This document shows, in pieces, positions 974 to 62,320 of a DNA stretch of 64,000 nucleotides. This DNA is from Nannocystis bainbridge (lineage in GTDB: Bacteria; Myxococcota_A; Polyangia; Nannocystales; Nannocystaceae), in contig NZ_JAQNDL010000002.1 in the NCBI RefSeq assembly GCF_028368995.1, forward strand, positions 320,001 through 384,000, given 5' to 3'. The position numbers were made by a program, and so were the translations under genes. The notes under the pieces are model-generated. The model searched no databases. It was not told the DNA's origin and saw only the letters and a program-made list of their open reading frames with translations. Positions within the stretch are counted from its first letter, which is position 1, and each line of letters begins with the position of its first letter.

Positions 974-2578
974 ATGGCCGACGTCCGCAAGCCCCCGGTC
1001 CCGCCGCGCGCGTCGCCGCCTCAGCCGGCGCCGCCGCGGACGTCGCGGTCCTCGGCGGGCGCGCCGGCCCAGGCGCCGCGGGTGGCCCCGAACGTGGCCG
1101 AGCTCGAGCGCCAGGTCGGCAGCCTGGCGCTGTCGCAGATCGATGGCGCCGGGGCGCTGGCGATGATGCGGGCGCTGGTGTGGCAGGGCATCCTGGCGCG
1201 CCTCGGCGTGGCGGCGCCGCTGGTGGTGCTGCACGACCTGGGGTGCCTGATCACGGGCCTGGGCGGCCCGGGGCCGGTGGTCAAGGGCATCGCCGAGTCG
1301 GAGCTGTGCGAGGCCTGGCGCGGGCTGTTGGTCGAGCTCAGCGAGAGCGACCTGGTGCGCGCGCAGGCCGGCTGGAAGCACCGCGACCAGATGATCGGCG
1401 TGGTCCTGGCGCGGGTGTTCGCGCCGGTGGTCCCGCAGCTGCCCGACGACGTGCGGGTGCTGCGGCCGATCGAGCTGCCGGTCGACGCGGTCCACTACGC
1501 CAAGGTCGAGCCGAGCTCGGCGTACACCCGCTACGACCAGCGGCAGACGATCGCGTGGCTGCAGACGCTGACGACGCACCGGCTGTTGCCGCTGCTGGCG
1601 GTCGAGCAGATCGACGTCGACGCGCTGCGGCTGTTCGGGCTGTTCCGCGGCGGGCCCGGCGAGGCGGCCGCGGGCGTCGACCTGGCCGACCTCTACAACG
1701 TGATGGTCAGCCCGGCGCTGGCCGACGTGATCGACTTCTCGATGGAGCTCTTGCCGTCGATCCTCGAGGTCAAGCGCGAGGCCGGGCAGCAGGCGTTCTC
1801 GATCGACGGCTACGCGTCGATCGAGCGCTTCGGCGGGGTCGACGACCTCGAGCTGTCGCAGCTGGCGTACGACGAGGACATCTTCGAGCAGAAGTTCATC
1901 GACGACGAGCTGTTCTACTTCACCCACGAGAAGCAGGTGGAGACCGAGCACCGCACCCACTACGTGCTGGTCGACGGCTCGGCGTCGATGCGCGGGGTGC
2001 GGGAGGTGTTCGCCCGCGGGCTGGCGCTGGCGCTGTGCAAGCGGCTGGCGCTGCTCGGCGAGCACGTGATCCTGCGGTTCTTCGACAGCCGCCTGTACGA
2101 GGGCGTCAAGGTCGGCGCGCAGGGCCACGCCGAGGTGCCGTACGTGCTGCAGTTCCGCGCCGAGCACGGCCGCAACTACGCCCGCGTGATCCGCCAGATC
2201 AACGCCGAGCTGTCGGCCCCGCGCCGCTCGGGCGGCGGCGGCGGCGGCAAGGCGCTGGTCTACCTGCTGACGCACGGCGAGTGCCAGCTGCCGCCCGACG
2301 ACGTGGCCGCCCTGGCCGCGCGCGCGCCGATCTACGGGGTGTTCATCCTCCCGAGCTCGGGCGTGCTCGACCTCGGCTACCTCGACCTGTTCTACCGCGT
2401 GCACGTGATCGACGACCAGGCGATCAGCCACGGCCGCCGGGCCCAGCGCGCCCGCCAGATCATCAGCGACGTCGAGGCCGGCCAGCGCCAGGCCCAGCCG
2501 GTGCGCCGCAACACGGGTGGCGCAAAGACCATGTCCGTGGGGACAGGTCCGAAGGGACAGGGGCGGAGGCGGCGGTGA
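974..2578 (+). CDS. VWA-domain partner of the MoxR ATPase (ViaA-like)
   Basis: MIDAS-like VLVDGSASMRG, then RFFDS and LTHG. Lies directly after the ATPase. Confidence 0.8.
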   Translation: MADVRKPPVPPRASPPQPAPPRTSRSSAGAPAQAPRVAPNVAELERQVGSLALSQIDGAGALAMMRALVWQGILARLGVAAPLVVLHDLGCLITGLGGPGPVVKGIAESELCEAWRGLLVELSESDLVRAQAGWKHRDQMIGVVLARVFAPVVPQLPDDVRVLRPIELPVDAVHYAKVEPSSAYTRYDQRQTIAWLQTLTTHRLLPLLAVEQIDVDALRLFGLFRGGPGEAAAGVDLADLYNVMVSPALADVIDFSMELLPSILEVKREAGQQAFSIDGYASIERFGGVDDLELSQLAYDEDIFEQKFIDDELFYFTHEKQVETEHRTHYVLVDGSASMRGVREVFARGLALALCKRLALLGEHVILRFFDSRLYEGVKVGAQGHAEVPYVLQFRAEHGRNYARVIRQINAELSAPRRSGGGGGGKALVYLLTHGECQLPPDDVAALAARAPIYGVFILPSSGVLDLGYLDLFYRVHVIDDQAISHGRRAQRARQIISDVEAGQRQAQPVRRNTGGAKTMSVGTGPKGQGRRRR

Positions 2579-4407
2579 TCGACACCAACGTGCTGTGGAT
2601 CCGCGCCGAGGGGGCGCTGCGGGCCGGGCGTCACGCCGACGCCCAGATCTACCTGCGCCAGCTGGTCCAGGTCGTCGACCGCATCGACTTCGAGTACGAG
2701 GAGTGGCTGCGGGCCTACGTCGACTCGCTGCGGGCCACCGGCAACTGGGGCGAGGGCATGGCCTGCCTGTCGTACCTCGGCGCGCGCGAGATGCCGGGGC
2801 CCGACATCATGCGGCTGTACGCGCAGCGGGCCCAGGCCGGCGACGCCGACGCGATCCGCACGGTGCGGCTGTACGCGATCTATCTGTCGCGCGCCGGTCA
2901 GCACCGGCCGGCGGCCTCGTGGTTCGAGCTCGGCGGGATGCCGGTGCACCGCGCGATCGCCCTCGAGCGCGCCGGCGACGACGCGGCGGCCTCGCAGCTG
3001 TGGGCCCGCATGCTGGCCGGCGACGCGCTGGTCGACCGCGACTACGAGCGCGCGCTGATGAAGATCAACTACGCGCTGTGCCTGCGCCGCCTCGGCCACG
3101 AGCGGGCCCGCCAGGCCATCGCCGACGCGACCACCAGCGTCGAGGAGGTCGCCGACGCGTTCGAGAGCGAGGGCCTGCGCGAGCGCGCGTTCGACTGCTA
3201 CCAGCTGATCGCGCGCCTCGGCTCGGAGACGCGGGCGTTCGAGAACGTCGCCGAGGGCTACCTCAACAGCGTCCGGATCCTCCGCGACGACGGGCTCAAG
3301 CTCGACGCGCTGCGCCTCTACGAGACGTTCATCGCCATGGCCCGCGAGGCCGGCGAGTTCCACGCGGTGGCGTCGATCCTGCGCGAGGCCGCCGACTACT
3401 GCACGCGCTCGGGGCTGCCGTACGCCGACGACCTGCGCTGGCGCAGCGCCGAGGCGTGGATCAAGGCGGCGACCGAGGCGCTGGCCGCCGGGCACCCGCC
3501 GCAGATCATCGAGAACGCGTGCCTGGCCGCGGCCGAGGCGTTCGCGTCGGTGCGGGCGTTCCGTCAGGTCGCCGAGGCCTACCGCAAGGTCACGACGCTC
3601 GACCTGCCGGCCAAGAACCGCGAGCGAGCGCTGCGCCTGATCCGTCGCCTCGGCGACCAGCCCCAGGACGCGCCGCGGCCGATGCCGGTGCCCGAGTTCC
3701 TGCGCCAGCTGCCCGACTACGAGGAGGTCTGGTACGTCGACCTGGCCGAGTGGGAGCTCGGCGGCGACCCGGCGCTGGTGGCCGCGGGCGTGATGGCCGA
3801 CCGCCGCTTCCCCGACTACGTGCGCCGCCACGCGCTGCTGCTGGTGCTCGAGCTCGAGCGCCGCGGGCAGGCGGTGCCGCCGCTCGAGATCGTCAAGAGC
3901 CTGGCGGTGGTCCGCGCCTATCCGGTGATCGCCGGGCTCGAGGCGATGTACCGCCAGGGCGACGCGTCGCTGCGCGAGTCGGTGGCGGCGGCGATGGGGG
4001 CGCTCCGGTTCAAGCGCAGCTTCGGCCTGGTGTCGCAGGCGCTGCGCGACCCGAGCGCGCCGGTCCGCAAGGCGGCGGCGGCGTCGGTCGAGCGGCTGGT
4101 GTTCCCGCACGCGTTCGAGCCGCTGCGCCGGATCTTCGAGGCCCGCGACCTGCCCGACCCCGAGGCCGCTCGCAAGGCCGCGCTGGCCGCGATCGGCAAG
4201 ATCGGCAGCGTCGAGGCCCTGGACTTCCTGTGCGACCGCCTCCGCGAGGGCGAGCAGCCGTTCGTCAAGGTCGCCAGCACCGCCATCAGCGAGCTGCCCA
4301 ACTCGGAGCTGCTGCCGTACCTGCGGCGCCAGATCGAGTTCGTGCCGGCCGAGCACCGGGCTGTCCTCGAGGACACGGCGCAGCGGCTCGAGCACCGGCT
4401 GCGCTGA
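2575..4407 (+). CDS. TPR/SNAP-like helical protein with C-terminal HEAT repeats
   Basis: GTG start overlaps the previous stop (GTGA). The C-terminus has HEAT-like repeats (ALRDPSAPVRKAAAASV, ARKAALAAIGKIG). Confidence 0.75.
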   Translation: MIDTNVLWIRAEGALRAGRHADAQIYLRQLVQVVDRIDFEYEEWLRAYVDSLRATGNWGEGMACLSYLGAREMPGPDIMRLYAQRAQAGDADAIRTVRLYAIYLSRAGQHRPAASWFELGGMPVHRAIALERAGDDAAASQLWARMLAGDALVDRDYERALMKINYALCLRRLGHERARQAIADATTSVEEVADAFESEGLRERAFDCYQLIARLGSETRAFENVAEGYLNSVRILRDDGLKLDALRLYETFIAMAREAGEFHAVASILREAADYCTRSGLPYADDLRWRSAEAWIKAATEALAAGHPPQIIENACLAAAEAFASVRAFRQVAEAYRKVTTLDLPAKNRERALRLIRRLGDQPQDAPRPMPVPEFLRQLPDYEEVWYVDLAEWELGGDPALVAAGVMADRRFPDYVRRHALLLVLELERRGQAVPPLEIVKSLAVVRAYPVIAGLEAMYRQGDASLRESVAAAMGALRFKRSFGLVSQALRDPSAPVRKAAAASVERLVFPHAFEPLRRIFEARDLPDPEAARKAALAAIGKIGSVEALDFLCDRLREGEQPFVKVASTAISELPNSELLPYLRRQIEFVPAEHRAVLEDTAQRLEHRLR

Positions 4408-4463
4408 GGCTCGCGCGCGCTGCCCGTTCGCGCCGCGCGTGGTAGCTTCGCGGGCGGCGCAGC

Positions 4464-5519: not shown

Positions 5520-5556
5520 GGACATGTCCTGATAGACATGTCCTCTGGGGCATGTA
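5520..5556. repeat. Phased array of the 14-bp TGTCY-N4-RGACA element
   Basis: CATG cores at 5523, 5537 and 5551 (14-bp period), intergenic. Confidence 0.85.
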
Positions 5557-6460: not shown

Positions 6461-6517
6461 CGGCGGTCAAGCTGTCCTGAAGGACAGATCGGAGAGCGGG
6501 GCCAGGGCGCAATGATA

Positions 6518-9525: not shown

Positions 9526-9526
9526 G

Positions 9527-10765: not shown

Positions 10766-10771
10766 TCGCCG

Positions 10772-12829
10772 TCAGCGCGCGCCGAGGGAGCGCAGGAGCA
10801 TGGCGCGCACGGCCGTGAGGTCGGCGTCGACGCGGGCGCGCGGGTGCGCGGCCGCGGGGCCGTGCGGGACGGTGCGGAGCTGGTCCTGGCGGGTGACGTA
10901 GGTGACGCAGGTCGAGGAGCGGTTGCCGCGGAGCATGGCCAGGGCTTCGGCGAGGATGGTCGTCTGGTCCTCGGGACATGGTGTGAAGGACATGTCTCCC
11001 CAGGCAGGTAATGCGACGGCGGCGGCGGCGTCGGACACGAGGCCGGGGGCGTGGGCGCGCAGGTGGTCGAAGGCGCGGGCGAGGCCGGCCGAGTCGCCGG
11101 CGGCGGCGTGTACCAGGCCGAGCTCGACCCACGCGCCGGTGCGGGCCGGGTGGCTGGTGACGGCGTGCTGGAGGTCCACGAGGGCGCCTGCGAGGTCGCC
11201 GGTGGCCGCGCGGGCGCCGGCGCGGTGGGCGTAGACGGCCGGGCCGACGGTGCCGCGCATCTGGGCGATGCCGGCGGCGGAGACGGCGAGGGCGCCAGCG
11301 GGGTCGCCTGTCCGCTGGGACAGGAGGGTGAGGCCGACGTAGGCCCAGCGGGTGCGCGGGTTGAGGGCGATCGAAGCCTCGAGGTCGGCGCGGGCGCCGG
11401 CGTCGTCGCCGAGCCACATCCGCAGCTCGCCGCGGTGGGCCAGCGGCAGGGAGGAGCGCGGCCAGCGGGCGCAGGCGGCGTCGAGCAGGGCGAGCGCGCG
11501 GGCCGGGTGGGCGCTGCGGATCGTCTGCAAGGCGTGGCGCGAGGCGTGGCGCACACCTGTCCGTGTGGACAGGCGCTTGAGGACATGTCCGTCGTGCCAG
11601 GTAGCGAACGGCGAGCGGTTGCAGCCCATGCGCGCGAGGGCGTCGCGGGTGGCGTCGACCAGCGGGCCCTGGCGGTCGGCGGCGAGGGCGGCGGGGGCGA
11701 GCGGGGAGACCTCGGCGAGGGCCTCGGCGAACTCCTCGATCTGCCGCAGGTTGACGGGGGCGTCGGGGGCGGGGCGCTCGCCGGCAGCGGCGAGGAAGCG
11801 CAGCATCCAGGCGACGAACAGGTAACCATCGCCGATCGCGGTGGCGCGGGTCAGCGCGGCGTGGGCAGGGTCCCAGGCGCCGCGGCAGATCAGCGCCTCG
11901 GCGCGCGACAGCTCGGCGGCCGGATCGGGGACCTGGCAGGCGAGCTCGAGCTCGCGGAGGGCGGGGTCGTGGTGGCCGTCCGCGAGCAGGAGCTGGCCGC
12001 GGATCCTGCACGCGCCAGCGCGACCGCGAGCGCCAGGGATGGCTTCGGCGCGGGCCAGGGCGGCCTGGCGATCGCCTGTCCACAGGGACATGTCGGCGAG
12101 CGCGAGGGCGACGGGCGGGTCGTCGGGCTGCAGCGCCAGAGCGGCCTCGCCGTGACGGGCGGCGCCTCTGAAGTCGCCGGTCTCGAGCAGGGCGAACATT
12201 GCGGCGCGGCGGTAGAAGGCAGCGTCGCCCGCCGGGGCGAGGCGCAGGGCGGCGGCCAGCTCGACGCCGCAGGCGTGATCGTGCCCGGCGCGGGCCAGGG
12301 CGGTCGCCAGCTCCATGCGCAGCTTGGCCGAGTCGGGGGCGCGCTGCAGGCCGCGGCGGGCGGCGACGATGGCGAGCTCGAGGTCGCCGCCGCGCAGGTG
12401 CATCTGCGCCTCGAAGGCGTCCCAGGTCGGGTCGGTCGGATCGGCGGCGCGGCCGACCGCGATCGCGGCCGCGACCTCGCGCTCCCAGCCGAGCGCGCTG
12501 GCGTAGCCGACAGCGCGGGTGGCCGCGGCGCGGGTGGCCGCGGGTGCGGCTCGGGCGGCGGCGGCGAGGGCGTCGAGGCTGCGCTGATAGTCGTGCGTGG
12601 CCCGCAAGATCGCGGCGGCGGCGAGGGCGACGGCGGCGTCGTCGGGCCTGTCCCCCAGGGCAGCTTCGGCGGCCGCGCGGGCGCGGGCGAGCTGGCCGTG
12701 ACGAGCCAGGGCGACGGCCCGCAGCAGGGCACCGCGGGCGCCGAGGCGCGGCTCGTCGGCTTCGAGGTCGCCGGCGTCGAGCGCGGCCTGAAGGCGCAGC
12801 GCCAGCTGCGGGCTCGCCGTGCGGTTCAC
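10772..12829 (-). CDS. Tetratricopeptide-repeat protein
   Basis: Many TPR units (e.g. AHRGELRMWLGDDAGARADLEASIALNP). GTG start is preceded by AGGAG. Confidence 0.8.
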   Translation of the reverse strand: MNRTASPQLALRLQAALDAGDLEADEPRLGARGALLRAVALARHGQLARARAAAEAALGDRPDDAAVALAAAAILRATHDYQRSLDALAAAARAAPAATRAAATRAVGYASALGWEREVAAAIAVGRAADPTDPTWDAFEAQMHLRGGDLELAIVAARRGLQRAPDSAKLRMELATALARAGHDHACGVELAAALRLAPAGDAAFYRRAAMFALLETGDFRGAARHGEAALALQPDDPPVALALADMSLWTGDRQAALARAEAIPGARGRAGACRIRGQLLLADGHHDPALRELELACQVPDPAAELSRAEALICRGAWDPAHAALTRATAIGDGYLFVAWMLRFLAAAGERPAPDAPVNLRQIEEFAEALAEVSPLAPAALAADRQGPLVDATRDALARMGCNRSPFATWHDGHVLKRLSTRTGVRHASRHALQTIRSAHPARALALLDAACARWPRSSLPLAHRGELRMWLGDDAGARADLEASIALNPRTRWAYVGLTLLSQRTGDPAGALAVSAAGIAQMRGTVGPAVYAHRAGARAATGDLAGALVDLQHAVTSHPARTGAWVELGLVHAAAGDSAGLARAFDHLRAHAPGLVSDAAAAVALPAWGDMSFTPCPEDQTTILAEALAMLRGNRSSTCVTYVTRQDQLRTVPHGPAAAHPRARVDADLTAVRAMLLRSLGAR

Positions 12830-13059: not shown

Positions 13060-15303
13060 TCAAGGGACAGGTTGCATGGCCGCGAACCCGTGGGCGCGCA
13101 CGTAGTTGATGTGCATGCCCTTACAGACATGTTCATGAGAGCATGTCTTGCAGCGCAGGCTCTTGACGTGGAAGCCGTCGTCGATGAAGCGGCGGGCGTA
13201 GCGGAAGATCTCGAGGCCGCCGTCGGGGCCGAGCTGGGCGGCGTCGAACACCGGCGGGCGCTCGCGCGGCGGCCGGCCGGCGATGCACGCGGGGACGGCC
13301 TCGACGGGCACCGGGGGCCGGAGGGCGGCGAAGAAGGCCGGGAGGTCGAGGTCGAGCTCGGCCGACTCGGTGAGGCGCTCGCGCGCGGGCTGGCGCAGGA
13401 CCAGGCGCGGCGGGGCAGCCTCCAGGGCGAGCAGCCAGGCCTCGGCGGCGCGCGACAGCAGGAGCACGACTTCGAGGTCGAGGGGGAGGTCGAGCAGCGC
13501 GGCGGCGGCGGCAGGGTCGGCGACGACGACGCGGACCAGGCGCTTGCCGGCGATCGATGGCTGGCCTTCGGGACCTGTCGTGGAGGACATGTGCGAGAGC
13601 CGGGCGATCAGGGCCGCGGGGTCGGCGAGCTCGAGCTCGAGCTCGGGGACTTCGGGGTAGTCGGCGGCGAGGGCCTCGGCGGCCGCGAGGTCGGGCGCGA
13701 CCAGCCACAGCGCGCGGGGCCGGGCCGCCGCCGCGAGGGCGCGGGCGTCGAGGCGCGGGCGCGCGGGTGGCTGCGACGCGCCGGCGCCGAGCAGCGGGAG
13801 GCGGAAGCGGCGGGGCGGCGGGTTCGCGGTGACGCCCGGCCGGGTGGCGGGAAGGACATGTCCCGAGAGACTGGTGGTGACGGGGGCCGGCGACGAGATG
13901 GCGGGAGGGACATGTCCCGCGGGACCGGTGGTGACGGGGGCCGGCGACGAGATGGCGGGAGGGACATGTCCCGAGGGACTGGTGGTGTCCAGGACCGGCG
14001 ACGAGATGGCGGGAGGGACATGTCCCGAAGGACTTGTCGACGTCGTATCGTGGTCCATGACGGCGAGGGCGCCTGGGCCGCGGTCGGTCGCGCGCGGGTC
14101 CGGGAGCTCGACGCGCCGCGCGTCGCGGGCCTCGGCCATGCCGGCGGCGGCCTCGTCGGCGGTGCCGGCCCACGCGTCGAGGCTGTCCTCGGGGACATGT
14201 CCTGAAAACCCGTCTTCAAAGCTGTCCTCGGGGACATGTCCCGAGAGGCCGGCGGCCAGGGCCCGCTCGGCGAGCACGCGGTGCAGGCGGGCGGCGGCGT
14301 GCTGGCGGCTGGCCGGGTCGCCGCCGTAGGCGACGGGGGCGTGATGCTCGGCGCCGGCGTCGATCCGCAGGACCTCGAAGCGCTGGCCGGCGAGGGCGGC
14401 GCGGACCTCGTCGAGGTGGTCGCACAGCGGCTCGAGGTAGCAGTGCTTGCAGCGCTCGGGGGCTCGGCAGTCGAGCGGGATGTCGTGCTCGAGCAGCAGC
14501 GCGTACTCCTCCTTGCGCCCGCGGACCTCTTCGATCAGCTTGTGCGGGTCCTGGATCAGGTCCTCGAAGCCCTCGAGGTGCTGCGGCGGAAATCGGTTGA
14601 GCCAGACGTGGACGCCGGGCCGGCGTGCGTAAGCGAAGGCCTCGAGCAGGTAGGGGCGCATGGCCTCGAGGTCGTAGAAGAGGACCTCGCGGCCCTCGCT
14701 GTAGGCGCGGCCGAACGGGATGACGTGCAGCAAGTCGAACTCGCGCACGCCCATGGCGGTGAAGGTGGCCATGAGCTCGGGCAGCTGCTTGACGTTGCCG
14801 CGGTTGACGCAGACGTCGATGTTGACGACGGGGCGACCGTCGGCGAGCGCGCCCTGGAGCCCCTTGACCTCCTCGTCGAAGGCGCCCTTGGTGCCGACGA
14901 GGGCGTCGTGGATCCGGGCGTTGGGGCCGTGGATCGAGAACGTGATCTCGCTGAGGCCGGCGTCGAGGGCGGCCCGCAAGAAGGCCGGATAGGCGAACAT
15001 GCGGCCGTTGGTGACGGTCTGGATCTTGCGATAGCCGGCGCGCCGGCCGAGGCGCACGAAATCGACGAAGTTGGGGTGGATGGTGGGCTCGCCGCCGGAG
15101 AGGATCAGGCGAGTGGCGCCGCGCCGGCGTCCGTCGAGGATCTGGGCCTTGATCTCGTCGCGGTCGCGGTTGGTGCCGTCGTGCGTGTGGGCGTCGAGGC
15201 AGAACACGCAGCGGTCGTTGCAGTCGAACGTCAGCCGCACCCAGTTGCGCCGCTCGTGCGCGGCCTCTTCGTGCTGCACGGCGGTGGCGGGGAGAGCGTC
15301 CAT
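13060..15303 (-). CDS. Radical SAM protein (HxsC-like) with repeat-derived linker and C-terminal Cys motif
   Basis: CNDRCVFC, SGGEPT, TNGR; internal CRAPERCKHCYLEPLC and C-terminal CKTCSHEHVCKG. Confidence 0.85.
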   Translation of the reverse strand: MDALPATAVQHEEAAHERRNWVRLTFDCNDRCVFCLDAHTHDGTNRDRDEIKAQILDGRRRGATRLILSGGEPTIHPNFVDFVRLGRRAGYRKIQTVTNGRMFAYPAFLRAALDAGLSEITFSIHGPNARIHDALVGTKGAFDEEVKGLQGALADGRPVVNIDVCVNRGNVKQLPELMATFTAMGVREFDLLHVIPFGRAYSEGREVLFYDLEAMRPYLLEAFAYARRPGVHVWLNRFPPQHLEGFEDLIQDPHKLIEEVRGRKEEYALLLEHDIPLDCRAPERCKHCYLEPLCDHLDEVRAALAGQRFEVLRIDAGAEHHAPVAYGGDPASRQHAAARLHRVLAERALAAGLSGHVPEDSFEDGFSGHVPEDSLDAWAGTADEAAAGMAEARDARRVELPDPRATDRGPGALAVMDHDTTSTSPSGHVPPAISSPVLDTTSPSGHVPPAISSPAPVTTGPAGHVPPAISSPAPVTTSLSGHVLPATRPGVTANPPPRRFRLPLLGAGASQPPARPRLDARALAAAARPRALWLVAPDLAAAEALAADYPEVPELELELADPAALIARLSHMSSTTGPEGQPSIAGKRLVRVVVADPAAAAALLDLPLDLEVVLLLSRAAEAWLLALEAAPPRLVLRQPARERLTESAELDLDLPAFFAALRPPVPVEAVPACIAGRPPRERPPVFDAAQLGPDGGLEIFRYARRFIDDGFHVKSLRCKTCSHEHVCKGMHINYVRAHGFAAMQPVP
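13843..14040. repeat. In-frame 54-bp tandem repeat (about 4 copies) carrying GGACATGTCC
   Basis: CATG cores at 13857, 13911, 13965 and 14019; encodes (S/A)GHVPPAISSP-type repeats. Confidence 0.9.
14182..14248. repeat. In-frame 39-bp duplication carrying TGTCC-TCGG-GGACATGTCC
   Basis: Cores at 14196 and 14235; encodes SGHVPEDS twice. Confidence 0.85.
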
Positions 15304-17858: not shown

Positions 17859-18061
17859 GCGCGGGGCTGGCGTGCCCGCGCTGCGGCTGTCCTGAAGTGC
17901 AGGTGACGGGCGGGCGGGCGAGCGCGTGCGCGCCGCTGCCGACGCCGGAGCTGCTCCGCTGCCCGCAGTGCGAGAACACGGGGACGCGGCTGCCGCTGCG
18001 CGGGCGGCCGCTGGTGCGCTGGGAGCACGAGGCCGGCGAGGGCGGTGAAGGACATGTCTGA
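17855..18061 (+). CDS. Small zinc-ribbon protein (68 aa)
   Basis: GTGA overlap with the radical SAM stop; CPRC...CPQC. Confidence 0.55.
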   Translation: MSAGLACPRCGCPEVQVTGGRASACAPLPTPELLRCPQCENTGTRLPLRGRPLVRWEHEAGEGGEGHV

Positions 18062-18125
18062 GGAGACATGTCGAATCGGCAATGTCCTGCGGGACATGCT
18101 TATGAGGGCATGTCCCAGGGGACAG
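18050..18125. repeat. Phased 14-bp element array (about 5 units)
   Basis: Perfect units at 18055, 18083 and 18111, with degenerate units in phase at 18069 and 18097. Confidence 0.9.
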
Positions 18126-20407: not shown

Positions 20408-20804
20408 TATTAAAACTAAGTCCGGCGAAGGGCGAGGTGAGCACGGTACCACGACCGCGGGCCGTGGAGCGCCCCATGCGGGCCAACCGTGGCTCCATCG
20501 GCAGGCATCTTATGGGTCGCGTGGGCTGCGCCGCTGAACGGTGATATCGACGAGCGATTGTTGCGGCTGTCTGGCCGCGCGCGCGAGCGATGGTGGGCGC
20601 GACGCCTGCATGGGCCCCGAGGCCGCAGGGCGACAGCACACGGGCGGGGCAACTGGCGGCGAGATCCGGGCGCAAGGGCTGCCGCTGCGCCGATGCGGGC
20701 GGGGCGAGTTGGTGGCCCTGCGTGGACGTGAGGGCGAAGCTCGCGTCGCGGCGCTGGCGGGCGCTGAGCCGCGGGCGCAGCGGTGCGCGCCTGGGCGATC
20801 CAGG

Positions 20805-21004
20805 CGCGCGCCGCTGCTTCGTCGCGCGTGGTCCCAAATGCATGTCTTTGGGGACATGCCCTCGGGGTCATATGGACGGCGCGTTCAATGTCGTTATTTC
20901 AGGGGCGCGCCGCTGCTTCGTCGCACGTGGTCCCAGAGTCATGTCTTTGGGGACATGACCTCGGGTGCATGTGGGTGGATCGGTCGATGTCGTGTCATTT
21001 CGGG
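20805..21004. repeat. 99-bp intergenic tandem duplication, each copy with a phased element array
   Basis: GCGCGCCGCTGCTTCGTCGCRCGTGGTCCCA...CATGTCTTTGGGGACATG occurs twice; perfect units at 20843 and 20942. Confidence 0.85.
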
Positions 21005-25927: not shown

Positions 25928-26038
25928 TGTCCGCAAGGACAGGTCTGTGGGGCCCGGAATGCGGGGCGACCCGGAGCTGTCCGAAAGGACATAGAGGCGA
26001 TTGGCAGGAGCTGGGGACATGTCCTGCGGGACATGTCC
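25928..26038. repeat. Cluster of three perfect TGTCC-N4-GGACA elements
   Basis: Units at 25928, 25978 and 26020, intergenic. Confidence 0.85.
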
Positions 26039-26224
26039 TTCGAAGCCGAGGATTCACCGCGCGGGTCCGGCACGCGTGACAGGGCGCACGGGCTCCGGCG
26101 TCGGGCCGCGCCGCCGGCGGACGTTGCGAGGGCGGGTCGGATTGACTATACCGTGAGCACGTCTGGCGGACGCAAAGTGCCCCCAATCGCCGCTGCGCGA
26201 CCGGGTAACCCCGAGGGAGGACAC

Positions 26225-26869: not shown

Positions 26870-26939
26870 GCGCGCCCGGGAGATGTCCCGAGAGACATGT
26901 GGGTCGATCGCCGGCCCGCGCGCGGGTATCGTCGCCGTC

Positions 26940-38734: not shown

Positions 38735-38805
38735 CGGCGGGGCGAGCGGCCGAGCGGTGAGATGTCCTCAGGGACATGTCCTGAAGGTAACCTCGGGATC
38801 GGGCC

Positions 38806-49085: not shown

Positions 49086-49169
49086 TGTTCGTAAGAGCAT
49101 GCTCGCCAGGACATGTCCTTGAGGGCATGCTCTTGTGGGCATGCCCATTCGGGCATGTCCCGAGAGTCA
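49086..49169. repeat. Phased 14-bp array with five RRRCATGYYY decamers
   Basis: CATG at 49098, 49112, 49126, 49140 and 49154, between convergent genes. Confidence 0.9.
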
Positions 49170-49173: not shown

Positions 49174-51378
49174 TCAGCCCAGGTCGGCGAGCGCCAGCGG
49201 CCAGCGGTGGTCGTAGGCCACCAGCTTGCCGGTGGCCGCCAGCGGCGCGGCGTCGGGGAGCGGCTGCGGGTCGCCCTCGGCGGCGAGCACGAACGCGTGC
49301 AGCGGGGTGACGACGACCACGCCGCGCTCGCTGCCGGTGGCCAGCAAGTGGGTCACGGGCGGTTGCACGACCTCGCCGGCGGGCAGGGTCTGCTCGCCGC
49401 AGGGGCGGCCCTCGGCGTCGAACCACAGGTGACGGTCGTCGCTCTCGACCACCAGGCGGCCGGCGCCGTCGAACTCGAACAGCCAGGCGTTCTTCAGGGT
49501 CCTGCGGGCCAGCTCGCGGCCGGCGCGGATGTCGTGGAGGACCAGCGCGTCGTCCTTGCGGGCGGTCCAGGCGACCCGCTGGCCGTCGGCCGAGAAGCGC
49601 GGCGACTCGTACTCGCCCCACGGGGCCGCGACCTCGCGGAAGCCCGCGCCCTCGCGCAGCCAGCAGCGCGACACGTGGCGCCCGCGCTGCGAGTCGTAGA
49701 CGTCGGCCTTGAACAGCGAGCCGTCGTCGCTGGCCAGCAGGTTGCCCGAGCTGAGGAAATCATCGGACGAGACCACGCCGAGCTGGGCGAGCTCGCGGCC
49801 CTCGGCGTCGAGCTCGACCAGCCGGCCGCTGCGGTCCTCCTCGCGCAGCAGCGCGAACACGCCGCCGGTGCGCTCGATCGGCGCGGCGTGGTGGATCCGG
49901 ATCGCCAACTGCTCGGCCCCGGCGGCGGTCAGGCGGAAGGCGTCGTCGTTGTTGAACCACGCCAGCGCGGCGTCGCGGCCGAGCGGGACGGCGCCGCTGA
50001 ACGCGTGCGAGGCGCCCCAATCGATGCCGCGGGCCAGCTCGACGCCGGCGGGCGAGCGCAGGGCGACGCCCTTCTCGACTTCGGTGAAGCCGAGGATCAG
50101 GCCGCTGCCGTCGCGCGTGACCTGAGGCTCGTACAGCGGCGGGGACATGTGCGCGGCCCGGACCGCGCCCTTCGGCAGGGTCTGGCGGAACCGGACCGCG
50201 CCGTCGTGGCCGAGGTGGAGCACCTGGTCCTCGTGGACGCGGGCGATCAGGCCGTCGGAGGCGCCGGCGGAGCTGATCTGATCGACCTCGGCGATCGGGC
50301 CGGCGAAGCGCAGGCCCTCGGGCTCGAGCGTGGCCACGAACAGCTGGCCGCCGCGGCGCGCGAGCGCGGCCAGCGTGCCGCTGGCGTCGCGGTGCATCAT
50401 GCCGACCGCGCAGTCTTGCTGGATCCGCGTCTGCAGCTTGCGCGCGATCGTGCCTTCCACGTCGGCCCACACCACCTCGCCGGCGGCAGTGCCGAACACG
50501 AACTGACCGGCGGCGAGGCCTGGCGCGATCGCGGTGATCGGGCCGTCGGTCGACGGCAGGGTCGAGGCGACCGCGCCCGCGCGCAGCACCGCGACCGCGC
50601 CGGCGGTGGCGACCGCGATCGCGTCCTCGCCGACCGCCGCGAGGCCGACCACCGGGCCTTCGACGCGACCGAGGGGCACCAGCGCGGCGTCCTTGCCGGG
50701 CTGCCAGGCGGCGACGCTGCCGTCGTCGAAGCCGATCAGCGCCCGCGCGCCGGCGGCCGCGAGCGCGGTCGCCTGAACGCCTGTCTCGAAGGACAGGTCG
50801 GCGATCGGCTCGCCGTCGCGATGGGCGCGCAGCTCGGCGCGACCGAGGGTGACGAGCACGTCCTCCGCGAGCGCCGTGAACGCGCGCAGGCCGAGGTGCT
50901 GCGCGGCCCAGGTCGGCTTGCCCACGCTGGCGCGGCCGCGCTTCTGCGCGACCTCGTAGGCCTCGATCGCGCCGCTGTCGCGGGCGACCACGACCTGGGC
51001 ATCGTCGGCGACGAAGGCGGCGCCCATCCGCCGCATCGGCGCGGGATAGGCGGCGGTGTCGCGGCCGTCGCCCTTCTTGATCCCCTGCAGCCAGGCAGCG
51101 TCGCGGACCACGAGGGTGAAGGTGGCGCTGGCCTTGGGGACGGTGCTGCGCGCCGACACCAGGCACTCGGCCACGTAGTCGTGGAGCTCGCCGGCGGTCG
51201 CGTGGGGATCCTGGTCGTTGGCGCGGGCGATCGGGCCGGCGGCGCCGAGGCCGTCGAGCAGCCGCAGGGCGAAGATCGGGCAGAAGGAGACGACGTCCTT
51301 CTCGAGCGAGCGCACGGTCAGCTTGATCTCGGCGCCCTTGAGCGCGGCGACTTTGACGGAGTAAGTGGCGGTCGACAT
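49174..51378 (-). CDS. WD40/beta-propeller-like protein
   Basis: Repeated blades ([31 protein letters not shown]). Confidence 0.65.
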
Positions 51379-51547: not shown

Positions 51548-52843
51548 ATGCGCCGCCTCGCCGCCCTCGCCGCCCTCGCGCTCGCCATCACATGTCTTTG
51601 GGGACAGCCTGCCGCCTCGGCCGCCGCGCCGGCGCCGGTGCCCGATAAGGCGTACTTGCTGCGGCCGGCGCGGGTGTTCGACGGCGAGGCGGCGCGCGAG
51701 GGCTGGGTCGTGCTGGTCCGCGGCGAGCGGATCGCGGCGGTCGGGCCGGCGGCGCAGGTCGGCGTGCCGGCCGACGCGGAGCCGATCGAGCTGGCGAACA
51801 CCACGCTGCTGCCCGGGCTCATCGAGGGCCACTCGCACCTGCTGCTGCACCCGTATGACGAGACGTCGTGGAACGACCAGGTGCTGCGCGAGCCGCTGAC
51901 GGTGCGCGTGGCCCGGGCCACCAACCACGCCCGCGATGCGCTGCTGGCCGGGTTCACGACGGTGCGCGACCTCGGCACCGAGGGCGCGGCGGAGGCCGAC
52001 GTGGGGCTCAAGCAGGCGATCCGGCAGGGCATCATCCCCGGGCCGCGGGTGGTGACGACGACGCGGGCGATCGTCGCCACCGGGACCTACGCGCCGCGGG
52101 GCTTCGCGCCGGCGTGGCACGTGCCGCAGGGCGCGGAGGAGGCCGACGGCGAGGACCTGGTCCGGGTGGTGCGCGGCCAGATCGCCCGCGGGGCCGATTG
52201 GATCAAGGTGTACGGCGATTACGCGTGGGGGCCGAAGGGCGAGGCGCTGCCGACGTTCTCATTGGCGGAGATGCAGCGGATCGTGGCGACGGCGCGCGAC
52301 GGCCGGCGGCCGGTGGTGGTCCACGCGAGCACGCCGGAGGGCATGAAGCGGGCGGTGCTGGCCGGGGCGGAGACGATCGAGCACGGCGACGGCGGGACCG
52401 CGGAGGTGTTCAAGCTGATGGCGAAGCGCGGGGTCTACCTGTGCCCGACGCTGGCGGCCACCGACGCGGTCCAGCAGTACGCCGGCTGGAAGCCGGGCGT
52501 CGGGCCCGAGCCGCAGGCGATCCGCGACAAGCGGGCCAGCTTCCGCGCGGCGCTGACCGCCGGGGTGCCGATCTGCTTCGGCAGCGACGTCGGGGTGTTC
52601 CGCCACGGCGACAACGCGCGCGAGCTCGAGCTCATGGTCGACTACGGGATGAAGCCGATCCAGGCCCTGCGCGCGGCCACGTCGGTCAACGCGCGGATGC
52701 TTCACATGGCCGACAGCATCGGCCAGGTCAAGGTCGGGCTGCTCGCCGACCTGGTGGCCGTCGAGGGCGACCCGACCCGCACGATCTCGGCGGTCCGGCA
52801 GGTCCGCTTCGTCATGAAGGGCGGGGCGATCCACCGCCGATGA
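51548..52843 (+). CDS. Secreted amidohydrolase-family protein (Xaa-Pro dipeptidase-like)
   Basis: [36 protein letters not shown] and ADLVAV. Confidence 0.9.
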
Positions 52844-52856: not shown

Positions 52857-52888
52857 CATGCCACATGTCTCCGGAGACATGTGGCATG
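52857..52888. terminator. Perfect 32-bp palindrome built on the element; possible bidirectional terminator
   Basis: CATGCCACATGTCT-CCGG-AGACATGTGGCATG between convergent stop codons. Confidence 0.65.
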
Positions 52889-54428: not shown

Positions 54429-54525
54429 CAATGATGACAGCAGAGAAAGTCCGAGGCCCGCTGTCATTGTTGCGGTGCCGTCATTGTTGCGGTGCCGTCA
54501 TTGTTGCGGTGCTGTCATTGTCGCC
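54429..54525. repeat. 17-bp direct repeats (about 3.5 copies) with an upstream inverted partial copy
   Basis: GTCATTGTTGCGGTGCC at 54463, 54480 and 54497 (last base T), partial at 54514; inverted GCAATGATGACAG near 54428. Confidence 0.8.
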
Positions 54526-54692: not shown

Positions 54693-56504
54693 TCACGGGT
54701 CGAGCACGACGACGTAGCCGTCGCGGCCGCCGTGGCTGGGCTGGTTGCCGGCGCCGAGGTCGATGCCGTTATTAAAATGACCGGTGGCGGCGACCGAGCC
54801 GGCGTCGGCGGCGGCGACGTGGGTGTCGCGCTGCTCCTGCGGGCCGCCGAGCCGCTTGCTCCACCCGTGCTGGCCGAGCGGGCCAAACTTGGCGACGAAC
54901 ACGTCGCGGTTGTCGAGGGCCATCAGCGGGCCGCCGCCGAGGTCGCAGGAATTGTAAAAGGTGCCGATGACGGCGAGGTTGTCGAGGCCGTCGACGGCGA
55001 CGTGCTCGGCGATCGAGCCGCCCTCGCACAGCTCGCGGCTCCACAGATGGGCGCCGTCGCCGTCGAACTGGGCCAGGTAGCTGACGACGTTGGGGCCCTC
55101 CAGCGGCCCGCCGCCGAAGTCGAGGACGCCGCTCGTGCCACCGGTGAGGCTGACGCGGCCCTTGCTGTCGACCGCGAGGCCGCGGATGGCCTGGCTGCCG
55201 ACGTCGCCCCAGCGCTTGCCCCACTTGGCGGCCCCGGACGGGTCGAACTTGATGAGGAAGATGTCCTCGAGGCCCGCGCTGACGAGCGGGCCGGTGCCGG
55301 GATCGAAGCTGCCGCGCATGCCGCCGGTGACGTAGATGTCGCCGGCCGCGTCGGCGCCGATGCCCATGCCGATCTGCCACTGCGGGTCGCCGAAGCCGCG
55401 GCTCCACGCGTGCGCGCCGGCGCCGGTGAACTTGGCGACGAACAGGTCGTTGGCGCCGGCGCCGAGGAGGGTCGGACCGCCGAGAGCGAGCGAGCCGACG
55501 AAGGCGCCGGTGAGCAGGATGTCGCCGGACGGATCGATCGCCAGATCGACGATGGTGGCGTCGTCGCCGGAATGGAACGAATGGCTCCACTGGTGCTGGC
55601 CGTCGCCGTCGAGGCGGGCGAGGAACAGGTCGGCCTGGGCGGTGGGATTTTTGAGCGGGCCGCCGCCGAAATCGAGGTCGCCGTGGAAGACGCCGCCGAG
55701 GACGATGTCGCCGTCGCCGGCGATGGCGAGGCCGTATTCGGGACCGCCCTGGTAATCGCCGTCGCCGAAGCGCTTGGCCCACAGGAGGGCGCCGTCGGGG
55801 GCGAACTTGGCGAGCAAGACGTCGTAGCCGGCGTGGACCAGCGGGCCGCCGCCGAAGTCGACGTCGCCGTTGCTCCACGCGGCGAGCACGAGGTTGCCTT
55901 CGCCGTCAAAGGCGACCCTGTCGCCCTCGTCGTTGCCGGCCTCGCCGAAGGTGAGGCCCCAGGCGTATGCGCCGTCGCCCTGGCACGGGTCGAGGCCGTC
56001 GCAGCTCTCGTCGCCGGGCGCTTCGCAGGTGTCGCGGGCCGGGACGACCTCGCCGAGGCAGGGTCCCCACAGCTGCTCAGGGCCGCAGGTCTTCTGGCCG
56101 CCGTGGCACTCGCCGACGTCGAGGGTGCCGTCAGGGCCGCTGTAGCAGTCCTGCATGTCCCCGGGGACACATTCGCCGACGACGCCGGTGTCGGTGGCGT
56201 CGGTGGTCGTGGTGGAGTCGGTGGTGACGGAGGTCGTGGTGGTCTCCGTGGTGGTGGTTGTTGTGCCCTGGGTGGTGCTGGTGGTCGGGTCGACGGCGGT
56301 GGTGGGTTCGCCCGTGGAGGTGGTGGACTCGGTGGTGGTCTCGCTGCCCGCGCCGGTGGTGGGCGCGATCGCGGTGGTCGATTCGCTCGCGGTCCCGGCC
56401 TGCGCGGTGGTGTCGGCGGGGTCGGTGTCGGTGGCAGCGACAGGGTCGCCAGGGCACGCGGCGAGGACGAGGGGGGTGAGGCGCAGCCAGCGAGTCCAGG
56501 GCAT
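54693..56504 (-). CDS. Lipoprotein with Thr linker, Cys module and SBBP-like beta-propeller repeats
   Basis: Lipobox LAAC; repeated DxxGNLVxxGxFxGxxDFGGGPL...DxFxAKF...WxKRxG units. Confidence 0.85.
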   Translation of the reverse strand: MPWTRWLRLTPLVLAACPGDPVAATDTDPADTTAQAGTASESTTAIAPTTGAGSETTTESTTSTGEPTTAVDPTTSTTQGTTTTTTETTTTSVTTDSTTTTDATDTGVVGECVPGDMQDCYSGPDGTLDVGECHGGQKTCGPEQLWGPCLGEVVPARDTCEAPGDESCDGLDPCQGDGAYAWGLTFGEAGNDEGDRVAFDGEGNLVLAAWSNGDVDFGGGPLVHAGYDVLLAKFAPDGALLWAKRFGDGDYQGGPEYGLAIAGDGDIVLGGVFHGDLDFGGGPLKNPTAQADLFLARLDGDGQHQWSHSFHSGDDATIVDLAIDPSGDILLTGAFVGSLALGGPTLLGAGANDLFVAKFTGAGAHAWSRGFGDPQWQIGMGIGADAAGDIYVTGGMRGSFDPGTGPLVSAGLEDIFLIKFDPSGAAKWGKRWGDVGSQAIRGLAVDSKGRVSLTGGTSGVLDFGGGPLEGPNVVSYLAQFDGDGAHLWSRELCEGGSIAEHVAVDGLDNLAVIGTFYNSCDLGGGPLMALDNRDVFVAKFGPLGQHGWSKRLGGPQEQRDTHVAAADAGSVAATGHFNNGIDLGAGNQPSHGGRDGYVVVLDP

Positions 56505-60443: not shown

Positions 60444-62245
60444 GTCGCGTCTCCGCTGGCGCCGTAGATGGCCGCGCGCGCAGGCGGCAGGTCGGGGTGG
60501 ACCTCGCCGCCGCTGGTGAGCAAGAGCTGCCACTCGCGGCCGGGCGGCGGGCCCGGCGGGTGGGCCTGCGGTTCGGGGCCGAAGTCGATGACGAGCACGC
60601 GGTCGCCAGCGGGGCCGCGTCGCAAGACCCACAGGACGTGGTCTCCGACTGTCCCGACGGACATGTTCGATCGGTCCTGTTGGCGGAGGGTCGGATCGTC
60701 GCGGCGCAGGTGCAGCAGGGCGCGGTAGAGGGCGAGCACGCCGGCGTGCTCGCCGGCGTCGCGCTCGGACCAGTCGAGGCGCGAGCGCTCGAAGGTGGCG
60801 GGGTCCTGCGGGTCGGGGATCTTGGCCTGCTGCTCGGGATCGTGGAAGGCGGCGAACAGCTGGAACTCGGCGCGGCGACCGGCGGTGACCTTCTCGCCGA
60901 GCTCCTGCGGGTGATCGGTGAAGAACAGCCAGGGGGCGCTGGCGGCCCACTCCTGGCCCATCCACAGCAAGGGGGTCATCGGCAAGAACAGCAGCAGGGC
61001 CGAGGCGGCGCAGTACTTGTCGAGGCTCGTGAGGTGGTGAAGGCGCTCGCCGAGGGCCCGGTTGCCGACCTGGTCATGGTTCTGCAGGCAGTAGACGAAG
61101 GCGGGCGCGGGCAGGCCGCTGGCGTCGGCGCCGCGCGGCTTGCCGGACGGCGGCCAGGCCTGACCCTCGTAGAGGAAGCCGCGCTCGATGCAGCGGGCGA
61201 GGTCCTGGACGCTGGGCTCGAAGGCGCCGTAGTAGCCGTCGCGCTCGCCGGTGAGGACGACGTGGAGGCTGTGGTGGAAATCATCGGCCCAGATGGCGTC
61301 GAGGCCGACGCCGAGGACGATGGCGGGATCGTTGGTCTCGTCCTCGGCGATGAGGATCCGGTGGTCGGGGGCGCCGCGGACGTCGGCGGTGAGCTCGGCG
61401 AGGATCGGGCGCTCGGTCGGATCGACCATGGCGTGGGTGGCGTCGAGGCGCAGGCCGTCGAAGCCGAACTCGGTGAGCCAGTAGCGGACGTTGTCGAGGA
61501 CGAGCCGCCGCATCGCCGGGGTGGCGAAGTTGAGGGCGTCGCCCCAGGGGGTCTGGACGTCGTGGGCGAAGTACTCGGGGGCGTAGCTCGAGAGGTAGTT
61601 ACCCTCGGGGCCGAAGTGGTTGTAGACGACGTCGAGGAGGACGTTCATGCCGAGGCCGTGGGCGACTTCGACGAGGGCGCGCAGGTCGTCGGCCGGGCCG
61701 TAGCCGGCGTACGGCGCGAAGTGGGCGACGCCGTCGTAGCCCCAGCCGCGCGCGCCGGGGAAGCTCGACAGCGGCATCAGCTCGATCGCGGTGATGCCGA
61801 GCTCGGCGAGCAGCGGCAGCCTGGCAGCAGCGGCGGCGAAGGTGCCCTCGGGGGTGAAGGTGCCGATGTGGAGCTCGTAGAGGACGCAGTCGGCCAGCGG
61901 CCGCGGGCGCCAGTCGGTGGCGCGCGGCTGGTAATGACCGCGCACGACCTCGGCGGGGCCGTGGAGGCCGAACGGGAGGGCGCGCGCGTAGGGGTCGGGG
62001 ACCTCGGCGTCGCCCAGCTTGAAGCGGTAGAGGGTGCCCTCGGGGAGGTCGTAGAAGGCCTCGAACAGGCCGTCGCCGCGCGGCTCGAGCGGGCGGGCCT
62101 CGCGGGCGACGGGCGAGCCGTCGTCGGCCCGGTCGTAGAGGACGACGGCGACTTCGGTCGCGCGGGTGGTCCACACGCGGAAGCGGACGCCGCCGTCGAC
62201 GAGCGCGGCGCCGAGGTCGGACAGGGCGGAAGGATCATGGGTCAT
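60440..62245 (-). CDS. treZ: Malto-oligosyltrehalose trehalohydrolase
   Basis: [45 protein letters not shown]. Confidence 0.95.
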
Positions 62246-62268
62246 GGGGCAGCTCGGGGTCCGCGATC

Positions 62269-62320
62269 GGACATGGCGAAAGGGTCATGTGCCGTGGGAC
62301 ATGGCGAAAGGGTCATGTGT
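62269..62320. repeat. Phased element array (28-bp duplication) between glgX and treZ
   Basis: CATG at 62272, 62286, 62300 and 62314. Confidence 0.85.

Follow-up and report, generated by a model that had tools for sequence, protein, structure and literature searches.

A highly iterated 14-bp split palindrome in Nannocystis genomes: a candidate recognition site for a dimeric DNA-binding protein

Highly Iterated Palindrome 1 (HIP1) of cyanobacteria, the repetitive extragenic palindromic (REP) sequences with their bacterial interspersed mosaic elements (BIMEs), and DNA-uptake sequences are among the clearest genome-scale signals whose function is poorly understood. Here we describe a 14-bp inverted repeat, TGTCY-N4-RGACA, found in a 64-kb stretch of the Nannocystis bainbridge genome (C3:320001-384000, hereafter the window) and across the whole of that genome (G000; 11.05 Mb in five contigs, 71.5% GC). 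The element appears to be of a kind already known, the hyper-abundant short palindromes, with HIP1, REP/BIME, uptake sequences and the Neisseria repeat dRS3 as its closest analogues, and it seems to behave most like HIP1. No published description of the motif was found in literature searches, whose coverage excluded most subscription journals and all supplements.

HIP1 (GCGATCGC) is over-represented 15- to 300-fold and is conserved both inside open reading frames (ORFs) and in the stretches separating them, beyond neutral expectation; no evidence is seen for a peptide, RNA or gene-regulatory role and a role at the level of the nucleoid is proposed (PMC5861425). A link of HIP1 to orphan methyltransferases has been drawn (PMC4390886, PMC5861425). 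With HIP1 the Nannocystis element shares its nature as a short, hyper-abundant, lineage-specific palindrome that is frequent both in and between ORFs and conserved across genomes. It differs in that the palindrome is split by a free spacer of fixed 4-bp length, in its phylum, in its lower density and in its word, which is not the GCGATCGC that goes with cognate GATC/CGATCG methyltransferases. Phased 14-bp tandem arrays and a strong preference for intergenic positions at 3′ ends are features of the Nannocystis element.

Resemblance to REP and BIME sequences is also considerable. Both kinds of element are palindromic units gathered behind genes and in convergent spacers, both are able to fold into hairpins, and both are restricted to particular lineages, where they reach hundreds to thousands of copies. 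The Nannocystis unit, however, measures 14-24 bp, compared with about 35 bp in REP, and its arrays run head-to-tail at one fixed period, whereas REP units alternate in orientation. Instead of a GTAG-type tag beside an imperfect palindrome of about 20-40 nt, the 14-bp core has symmetric flanks, R-C-M and K-G-Y, and its copies, although clustered after genes and between convergent genes, are not strictly extragenic. The first-pass annotation of the window had proposed a search for co-occurring REP-associated tyrosine transposases (RAYT) or TnpA. The RAYT family (Y1 transposase, PF01797) had matches in 17 of 41 genomes searched and 6 of 14 controls; it had none in any of the 11 motif-rich Nannocystis genomes, nor in two sister genera that carry the motif, G011 and G013. 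Membership in the RAYT-associated REP/BIME class was rejected on the lack of a RAYT, the 34% of copies that are genic and the absence of a GTAG-type flank.

Uptake sequences of the Pasteurellaceae (uptake signal sequence, USS) and Neisseriaceae (DNA uptake sequence, DUS) are genome-wide and shared by related species; in genes they keep to preferred reading frames and to protein segments that tolerate them, they abound downstream of genes, and foreign DNA has few of them. Genic copies of the Nannocystis element likewise occupy preferred frames and tolerant segments, and the motif is shared across the clade, but it is a palindrome around a free spacer, and its copies are clustered and make up phased arrays. 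Neisseria dRS3 and the Neisseria intergenic mosaic elements (NIMEs) likewise number hundreds of copies in which two conserved half-sites enclose a spacer that is fixed in length and free in sequence, and NIME arrays are built of longer units each bounded by a palindrome, an arrangement with which the repeats at 36522-36865 and 20801-20993 of the window may be compared. The dRS3 repeat has a 6-N8-6 layout, is not known to occur outside intergenic DNA and serves as an integration target, whereas Nannocystis copies are also genic.

Copy number, spacing and placement of the inverted repeat

A pattern search of the window returned 35 perfect copies of TGTCY-N4-RGACA, precisely those whose starts the first-pass annotation had located by eye and no others, together with 29 one-mismatch and 54 two-mismatch copies. 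All eight variants singled out in that annotation also lay where it had placed them, seven with one mismatch and that at 29956 with two. Its chance expectation was about 0.1 perfect copies per 64 kb; 100 dinucleotide-preserving shuffles of the window gave a mean of 0.07 and a maximum of 1. Its GC content of about 74% is corrected here to about 72% (measured values 0.69-0.75). Genome-wide, 2982 perfect copies have a 4-bp spacer, which corresponds to one per 3.7 kb, compared with 3-29 copies for each other spacer length from 0 to 12; lengths of 3 and 5, which by the annotation's own criterion would have spoken against it had they been as common as 4, accounted for 29 and 10 copies. The genome-wide counts and the site profile together bore out that the spacer is fixed in length and free in sequence. 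The enrichment amounts to about 100-300-fold relative to the other spacer lengths and about 36-fold relative to synonymous shuffles, and single half-sites are not enriched (GGACA 11418 and TGTCC 12351 genome-wide, against a hand estimate from base composition of about 10,000 each). The observation is confirmed, and is stronger than the annotation stated. With 35 copies in 64 kb, the window is twice as rich in the motif as the genome is on average.

Extension of the profile gave a symmetric site, R-C-M-TGTCC-N4-GGACA-K-G-Y, in which the C-M and K-G flanks carry information. Within TGTCC, G1 and C3 hardly vary, any base can stand at T2, and T may take the place of C4; the spacer is relatively A/T-rich and has Y as its first and R as its last base. 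Direct phasing at 14 bp was strong throughout the genome (GGACA-N9-GGACA 639, TGTCC-N9-TGTCC 682), and decamer-like units lay 14, 28 and 42 bp apart 2654, 579 and 161 times, most other spacings staying at a background of about 3-30. As the annotation had described, units stand head-to-tail at an exact 14-bp period and share CATG at their junctions; the longest arrays comprise 8 units, and 42 of the 404 arrays with at least three units lie in called genes. The decamer GGACATGTCC, which occurs 956 times genome-wide, was considered as the basic unit. A partner half-site matching at least four of five positions stands across N4 from 760 of the 956 perfect decamers (chance for two independent 5-mers, about 3%), and in 493 of the 1987 perfect 14-mers the outer halves match only as expected by chance. 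Because most decamers have N4 partners while many 14-mers have outer halves no better than chance, the inverted repeat was taken as the basic unit and the decamer rejected as such, arising where abutting units share CATG.

Identical spacers recur within some arrays, as in seven CTGA-GGTCATGYCC units, which suggests that arrays grow by local duplication. The array that the annotation had reported at 49086-49169 does consist of degenerate units in exact 14-bp register, and Tandem Repeats Finder (TRF) assigned period 14 to 49108-49157. Longer tandem units, of 87 bp and 99 bp, each contain one perfect motif (Table 1); these units are local to their loci, and the motif part alone recurs elsewhere in the genome. 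In two fragmented Nannocystis metagenome-assembled genomes (MAGs; G002, G004), many of the phased motif matches lie within a few hundred bases of contig ends; since matches pile up there, arrays appear to break short-read assemblies, and motif counts from MAGs are probably underestimates.

The placement of copies was assessed on genes called by a crude codon-usage caller of our own (7871 genes, 81% of bases coding). On these calls, 1928 of the 2982 copies are intergenic, 1025 (34%) are fully genic and 29 straddle a gene end, the genic share being, if anything, underestimated because some "intergenic" stretches are uncalled low-complexity coding sequence, for example C3:715551-717842. Intergenic density was 0.94 per kb and genic density 0.114 per kb. 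Convergent spacers were densest (2.09 per kb), followed by tandem (0.91) and divergent ones (0.38), and a perfect copy was present in 35%, 18% and 12% of them, respectively; the median distance was 73 bp to a flanking 3′ end and 221 bp to a 5′ end. The annotation's statement that promoters are not preferred stands, divergent spacers being the least dense, but it was an understatement, since 3′ ends are markedly preferred. Its claim that copies sit in unrelated genes and at convergent 3′ ends is borne out by these spacer densities and by the Pfam families of the window hosts: the window holds 15 genic and 20 intergenic copies, 8 of the 10 host genes checked had Pfam matches, and the host families identified are ordinary and unrelated (HEAT, TPR, two radical-SAM, S41 peptidase, RING finger, glutathione S-transferase and the alpha-amylase family).

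Genic copies far exceed a codon-aware null, as ten synonymous-codon shuffles of all called genes produced 22-42 copies where the genome has 1025. They are spread along genes and favor two reading phases, V-[P/L/S]-x-D-x being the reading of 505 and [L/M]-S-x-x-T that of 431, while the third phase, which needs TGT, accounts for just 89. Relative to random genic positions, their protein surroundings are less hydrophobic (0.271 vs 0.315) and of lower complexity. Repeated linkers of the PEAVPADSQ type are the most extreme examples: the densest 3-kb motif cluster in the genome lies inside a single gene, C2:2066053-2070511 (-), which encodes a 1486-residue protein with long acidic P/E/A-rich repeats (PEAVPADSQ and PEAVSSDSQ types) and carries 14 perfect copies. 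The 2.3 kb left uncalled at C3:715551-717842 hold 11 perfect copies, partly in a 42-bp repeat, and resemble minus-strand coding sequence of low complexity.

Perfect copies number about 27 per 100 kb on all five contigs, in an over-dispersed distribution (variance 123, variance-to-mean ratio about 4.5 per 100 kb). A relation to origin and terminus, for which the annotation had suggested looking, did not emerge: density showed no visible change at the two GC-skew switches. Copy-poor 50-kb bins have lower GC, near-zero GC skew and fewer confidently called genes (Spearman rho 0.47 for GC and 0.41 for absolute skew), and for these reasons they look like acquired islands.

The 5-N4-5 layout is also that of the FNR box, TTGAT-N4-ATCAA. 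Operators of the FNR class, parS, matS, the Noc-binding site (NBS) and the SlmA-binding site (SBS) are likewise palindromes of 13-16 bp with the geometry of a helix-turn-helix (HTH) dimer, but they number from a few to about a hundred and are confined to domains or promoters, whereas the Nannocystis site occurs 2982 times, on all contigs and least near promoters. A parS-, matS-, NBS- or SBS-type site was ruled out by the even contig-level density and the lack of a domain pattern. A transcription-factor operator was ruled out by the copy number, the minimum in divergent spacers and the median distances to gene ends; the annotation had likewise argued against a regulon operator, and the low density in promoter-bearing divergent spacers and the copies inside unrelated genes agree with it.

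Conservation and taxonomic range

Each of ten other Nannocystis genomes, from relatives that include N. exedens DSM 71, N. pusilla Na p29, N. punicea FL3, N. radixulma and Nannocystis sp. RBIL2, contains 114-2090 copies of TGTCC-N4-GGACA, compared with 1-6 copies of a reversed-pattern control. Elsewhere in the family, counts are raised only in the sister genera G011 (87) and G013 (161); the count is 0-8 in 11 more of the family's genera and in 16 genomes from the class. Phased arrays are essentially limited to Nannocystis, phased direct repeats being barely above control in G013 (27 vs 17) and not above it in G011 and G024; the samples from G011 (200 kb) and G013 (41 kb) are too small to characterize the motif there. 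Over its whole genome, G011 has an iterated palindrome of its own, TTGCA-N2-TGCAA (280 copies vs 5 of the reversed control; for example L216-L225), which occurs 3-20 times in Nannocystis (control 0-1) and 0-13 times in other relatives. Within the family, the word may thus differ from one lineage to another, each having one of its own.

Conservation of genic copies was quantified against 1.2 Mb of the N. exedens genome. Of 817 genic sites in N. bainbridge with full flanks, 47 were matched and 40 were usable, and 22 of these 40 (55%) were still perfect, compared with 673 of 7384 (9.1%) control 14-mers that were matched for composition and drawn from 1022 randomly chosen genic alignments (p = 3e-13). 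Moreover, A or T at third codon positions was kept in 32 of 44 cases within half-sites, whereas the flanks kept it in 53 of 180 (p = 2e-7) and the genome as a whole in 1187 of 4681. Between genes, 199 orthologous spacers could be compared: a site was present in both species in 28, in N. bainbridge only in 14, in N. exedens only in 12 and in neither in 145, and copy numbers differ between the species. Within the first 20 kb of the window, genic copies are mostly kept in four other Nannocystis species, with gains and losses by one base, and the array sequences in this part of the window do not align with these species.

The copy at 60650, in a TreZ-like gene, is present in the same codons in five of six other Nannocystis genomes, one of them at only 59% protein identity, with a spacer that varies. 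Eleven TreZ-like proteins from outgroups beyond Nannocystis show no gap at the motif position and have different residues instead; since there is no gap, this copy arose by substitution rather than insertion. Collectively, these comparisons argue that selection, or a drive that depends on recognition, maintains copies in all places where the sequence can be tolerated.

Duplex recognition and its alternatives

Variation at the free position of the half-site bears on whether the element is read as double-stranded DNA or as a hairpin. One-sided replacement of T2 by A, C and G was found 230, 381 and 335 times on the left and 178, 314 and 451 times on the right. The partners of TGACC were GGTCA in 25 cases, GGCCA in 68 and GGGCA in 41, which tracks the marginal frequencies (178:451:314) and not complementarity: at the variable position, each half-site changes without regard to the other. 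Downstream of genes, spacer words are strand-symmetric (CTCG 42 and CGAG 38; TTCG 38 and CGAA 32), and wobble-type and mismatch-type variants number 262 and 238; within genes, RNA-incompatible variants are the commoner, 343 vs 274. The flank profile showed no T enrichment past +14/+16 and the stem contains A-T pairs, unlike an intrinsic terminator with its GC-rich hairpin and T-run, and Rfam gave no matches at gathering thresholds in the window. On balance, the element would seem to behave as a symmetric site read on duplex DNA, with one half-site per subunit.

We put at about 45% the probability that the motif is a genus-specific recognition site for a candidate dimeric DNA-binding protein, kept by selection or recognition-dependent drive where it is tolerated and gathered into phased arrays after genes. 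Among the three alternatives named in the first-pass annotation, a dispersed site for an abundant dimeric protein fits best, given the position-specific half-sites, non-complementary partners and symmetric spacer words; its REP-like alternative failed on the features tested. The core TGTCY-N4-RGACA, extended to C-M-TGTCC-N4-GGACA-K-G, would then be a lineage-specific, highly iterated site on double-stranded DNA for a putative symmetric dimer, with one subunit on each 5-7-bp half-site and half-site centers 9 bp apart. In spacers after genes, above all convergent ones, neighboring sites overlap by CATG to give phased 14-bp arrays, which probably grow through local duplication of units; at 14 bp per unit, successive dimers would lie 120 degrees apart around the helix. 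In the single genic copy compared with outgroups, the site was made by point substitution and paid for with rare A/T-ending codons. The whole-chromosome scale and the depletion in foreign-looking islands point to a role at the level of the nucleoid or of self-DNA rather than in gene regulation; possible roles include marking, organizing or protecting resident DNA and blocking or relaxing converging transcription. Polymerization of the protein along DNA is conjectural, and the candidate "chromosome-wide binding code" of the annotation is entertained here as a hypothesis.

If sister genera do use different words, as the G011 palindrome may indicate, co-evolving pairs of reader and word would be implied in the Nannocystaceae. 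A further-reaching proposal is that an undescribed chromosome-wide DNA word, with a dedicated dimeric reader that coats phased arrays between converging genes and also occupies single genic sites, constitutes a new sequence-specific system for nucleoid organization or self-DNA marking; this we regard as possible but doubtful. Compared with HIP1, REP and uptake sequences, the motif adds experimentally tractable features, namely an absolute spacing rule, phased arrays that are ready probes and apparent genic selection strong enough to override codon preference, in a genus of which strains such as N. exedens DSM 71 and N. punicea FL3 are cultured and completely sequenced. Identification of a reader protein might bring to light a new system in the large, GC-rich genomes of myxobacteria, whether nucleoid-associated, acting at transcription boundaries or serving self-recognition. 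In practical terms, the motif can flag foreign islands, its arrays end contigs in short-read MAGs, and it may bear on genetic tools for this genus, which is valued as a source of natural products.

Several observations weigh against a protein-binding site on duplex DNA maintained for its function. Compensatory doubles are in excess, TGTTC...GAACA with 38 copies vs 9.5 expected and TGCCC...GGGCA with 146 vs 60 expected on a GC-rich background, and at position 2 wobble-type variants outnumber mismatch-type ones downstream of genes, 104 to 66. Arrays of self-complementary decamers form extended hairpins in RNA or single-stranded DNA: folded as RNA, the array at 49086-49169 reaches -56.1 kcal/mol (z -3.7), with decamers paired to one another, and that at 18055-18124 reaches -51.6 kcal/mol (z -6.1). 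The strong 3′-end preference is also what would be expected of a REP-like or terminator element. Half-site codon positions 1 and 2 are conserved at 0.80 and 0.85, compared with 0.88 and 0.89 in the flanks, and because they do not rise above the flanks, the evidence for conservation comes from the retention of whole sites and from A/T at third positions. Functional selection and a drive, for instance uptake bias or biased repair, cannot be told apart by retention, the comparison across species is based on a small sample (40 genic sites, 1.2 Mb of a single other species), and binding by a protein is deduced from sequence statistics alone.

Much of this would be accommodated by a REP/BIME-like structural element acting as a single strand, in which unit hairpins with a 5-8-bp stem and a tetraloop, together with decamer-paired arrays, would end or stabilize mRNA 3′ ends, in both directions between convergent genes. 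The convergent > tandem > divergent gradient, the closeness to 3′ ends, the 35% occupancy of convergent spacers, the two arrays that fold far more stably than shuffles, a four-base spacer that makes a natural tetraloop, the partial excess of compensatory doubles and the wobble bias at position 2 all speak for it. We nevertheless consider it unlikely, as 1025 copies lie, and are retained, in genes, where a terminator or stabilizer has no obvious use; variants show no overall bias toward RNA compatibility, loop words lack strand preference (UUCG vs CGAA, 38 vs 32), partner choice at the most variable stem position ignores complementarity, and neither a T-run after the element, an Rfam match in the window nor a RAYT to copy it was found. 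Quite unlikely, in our estimate, is a signal for DNA uptake or self-recognition in the manner of USS and DUS, with a surface or periplasmic receptor that prefers motif-bearing DNA and with uptake and recombination spreading the motif through the genus where it is tolerated. The genus-wide occurrence with a gradient into sister genera, the uneven use of reading phases, the less hydrophobic and less complex protein segments, the origin of the examined copy by substitution, retention across species, frequency after genes and depletion in foreign-looking islands match such a signal. Genes for ComEC and DprA are present as well, which says little because they were found in 10 and 11 of 14 control genomes, respectively. 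Known uptake sequences, however, are asymmetric words that are not known to have a variable spacer or to form phased arrays, the Nannocystis copies are clustered (variance-to-mean ratio about 4.5 per 100 kb), and we know of no natural transformation in Nannocystis.

That the copies are a functionless by-product of sequence-specific repair or methylation, an enzyme that recognizes the motif or its CATG junction correcting near-matches toward the motif in a bias of the HIP1 or very-short-patch (VSP) type, appears improbable. Hyper-abundance, palindromy, genic and intergenic occurrence and lineage specificity are shared with HIP1, and near-matches do become perfect between species, for example at 11309 and 16031, but the exact 14-bp arrays and the 5.5-fold difference between convergent and divergent spacers would be left unexplained, and a search of this genome, 90% complete, yielded no endonuclease of the Vsr family. 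In the case of HIP1, selection has been favored over biased repair (PMC5861425). Very improbable, finally, is a selfish mobile mini-element, whether REP/RAYT-like or akin to miniature inverted-repeat transposable elements (MITEs), or a recombinase landing pad such as dRS3 provides for phage and IS110-type integration. Thousands of copies, the turnover of copy number in the same spacers between species, identical-unit arrays suggestive of recent duplication and the NIME-like architecture of 87-bp and 99-bp units ending in the motif would fit mobility, whereas the lack of Y1 transposases noted above and the examined genic copy, which is not an insertion, do not, and a 14-bp insert would break the reading frame. 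Three IS110-family copies of about 1.4 kb, more than 99.6% identical to one another (C1:~555900-557320, C2:~2315110-2316530, C3:~876250-877660), are not inserted in the motif: their ends do not split it, and a motif-like site lies 47-52 bp beyond one end in two of the three copies, in one of them with 1 mismatch. On the ends of these copies, a dRS3-type integration target for IS110 was rejected.

Motif copies and neighboring features in the window

The individual copies and arrays are collected in Table 1. Beyond these, the radical-SAM gene 13060-15303 (-) contains a 54-bp coding tandem repeat with motif-like units at 13845-14034.

Table 1. Motif copies, arrays and motif-bearing tandem repeats in the window, with retention in up to four other Nannocystis species for copies within 1-20 kb.
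Feature	Positions	Location	Remarks
Perfect copy	2532..2545	In gene 1082-2578 (+), near 3′ end	Half-sites kept in 4/4, spacer differs
Perfect copy	4362..4375	In HEAT-repeat gene 2575-4407 (+)	Perfect in 1/4, the rest with 1-2 mismatches
Intergenic copy	5525..5538	41 bp past stop of 4969-5484 (+)	Flanks extend to GGACATGTCC...GACATGTCC; no alignment in four relatives
Intergenic copy	6473..6486	Between convergent 5888-6460 (+) and 6591-8696 (-)	
Perfect copies 11309, 11558, 12077	11309..12090	In TPR gene 10772-12829 (-)	Read as [L/M]-S-x-x-T; kept in 0/4, 4/4 and 3/4, respectively
Perfect copies 14184, 14223	14184..14236	In radical-SAM gene 13060-15303 (-)	Each within repeated peptide SGHVPEDS; each kept in 3/4
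Perfect copy	16031..16044	In radical-SAM gene 15363-17858 (+)	1 mismatch (GGACC) in 4/4
Array with perfect copies 18055, 18083, 18111	18055..18124	Between convergent genes	28-bp steps, degenerate units between; unalignable in relatives
Perfect copies 19171, 19441	19171..19454	In S41 peptidase gene 18158-20407 (-)	Both perfect in the single alignable relative
99-bp tandem repeat, 1.9 copies	20801..20993		One perfect copy per unit (20843, 20942)
Perfect copies 25928, 25978, 26020	25928..26041	Just past stop of 24841-25914 (+)	Last runs into another GGACATGTCC
Intergenic copy	26884..26897	15 bp past stop of 26258-26869 (+)	
Perfect copies 29441, 29492	29441..29505	Between convergent 28742-29425 (+) and 29638-30324 (-)	
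Perfect copy	30777..30790	In prokaryotic RING-finger gene 30496-33108 (+)	
87-bp tandem repeat, 3.9 copies	36522..36865		Each unit ends in a perfect copy with ACATG flanks (36585, 36672, 36762, 36849)
Intergenic copy	38763..38776	Between convergent genes (stops 38734 +, 38806 -)	
Perfect copy	39256..39269	In glutathione S-transferase gene 38806-39540 (-)	
Six degenerate units, no perfect copy	49086..49169	Between convergent 47537-49027 (+) and 49174-51378 (-)	
Perfect copy	50782..50795	In gene 49174-51378 (-)	No Pfam family
Intergenic copy	51593..51606	Between 49174-51378 (-) and 51638-52843 (+)	Rarer divergent context
Intergenic copy	52866..52879	Between convergent 51638-52843 (+, amidohydrolase) and 52903-53709 (-, DUF1275)	
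Perfect copy	56156..56169	In gene 54693-56504 (-)	
Perfect copy	60650..60663	In alpha-amylase-family (TreZ-like) gene 60440-62245 (-)	Read as M-S-V-G-T

Two genes of the window are themselves repetitive or of low complexity. The small gene 5888-6460 (+), especially its part at 6005-6145, gave weak, below-cut-off Pfam matches to Mucin, the Cys-rich DUF7107 and EB modules; this 141-bp low-complexity part returned 192 BLAST hits in the genome (154 of at least 60 bp) and many in each of the five other Nannocystis genomes searched, and it probably represents a coding linker common to the members of a large family of paralogs. The gene 21541-22608 (+), for which no convincing Pfam family was found, consists at 21806-22476 of highly repetitive coding sequence with periods of 12, 24 (6.9 copies, 97% matches), 69 and 93 bp.

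The two ends of the window are syntenic with places far from one another in other Nannocystis chromosomes: in N. exedens, 1-18 kb corresponds to about 0.28-0.35 Mb and 57-64 kb to about 7.16 Mb, and since the ends map so far apart, the window spans a rearrangement or species-specific DNA. Near a gene boundary at 54463-54521, a 17-bp tandem repeat (GTCATTGTTGCGGTGCC) is present in 3.5 copies with 97% matches.

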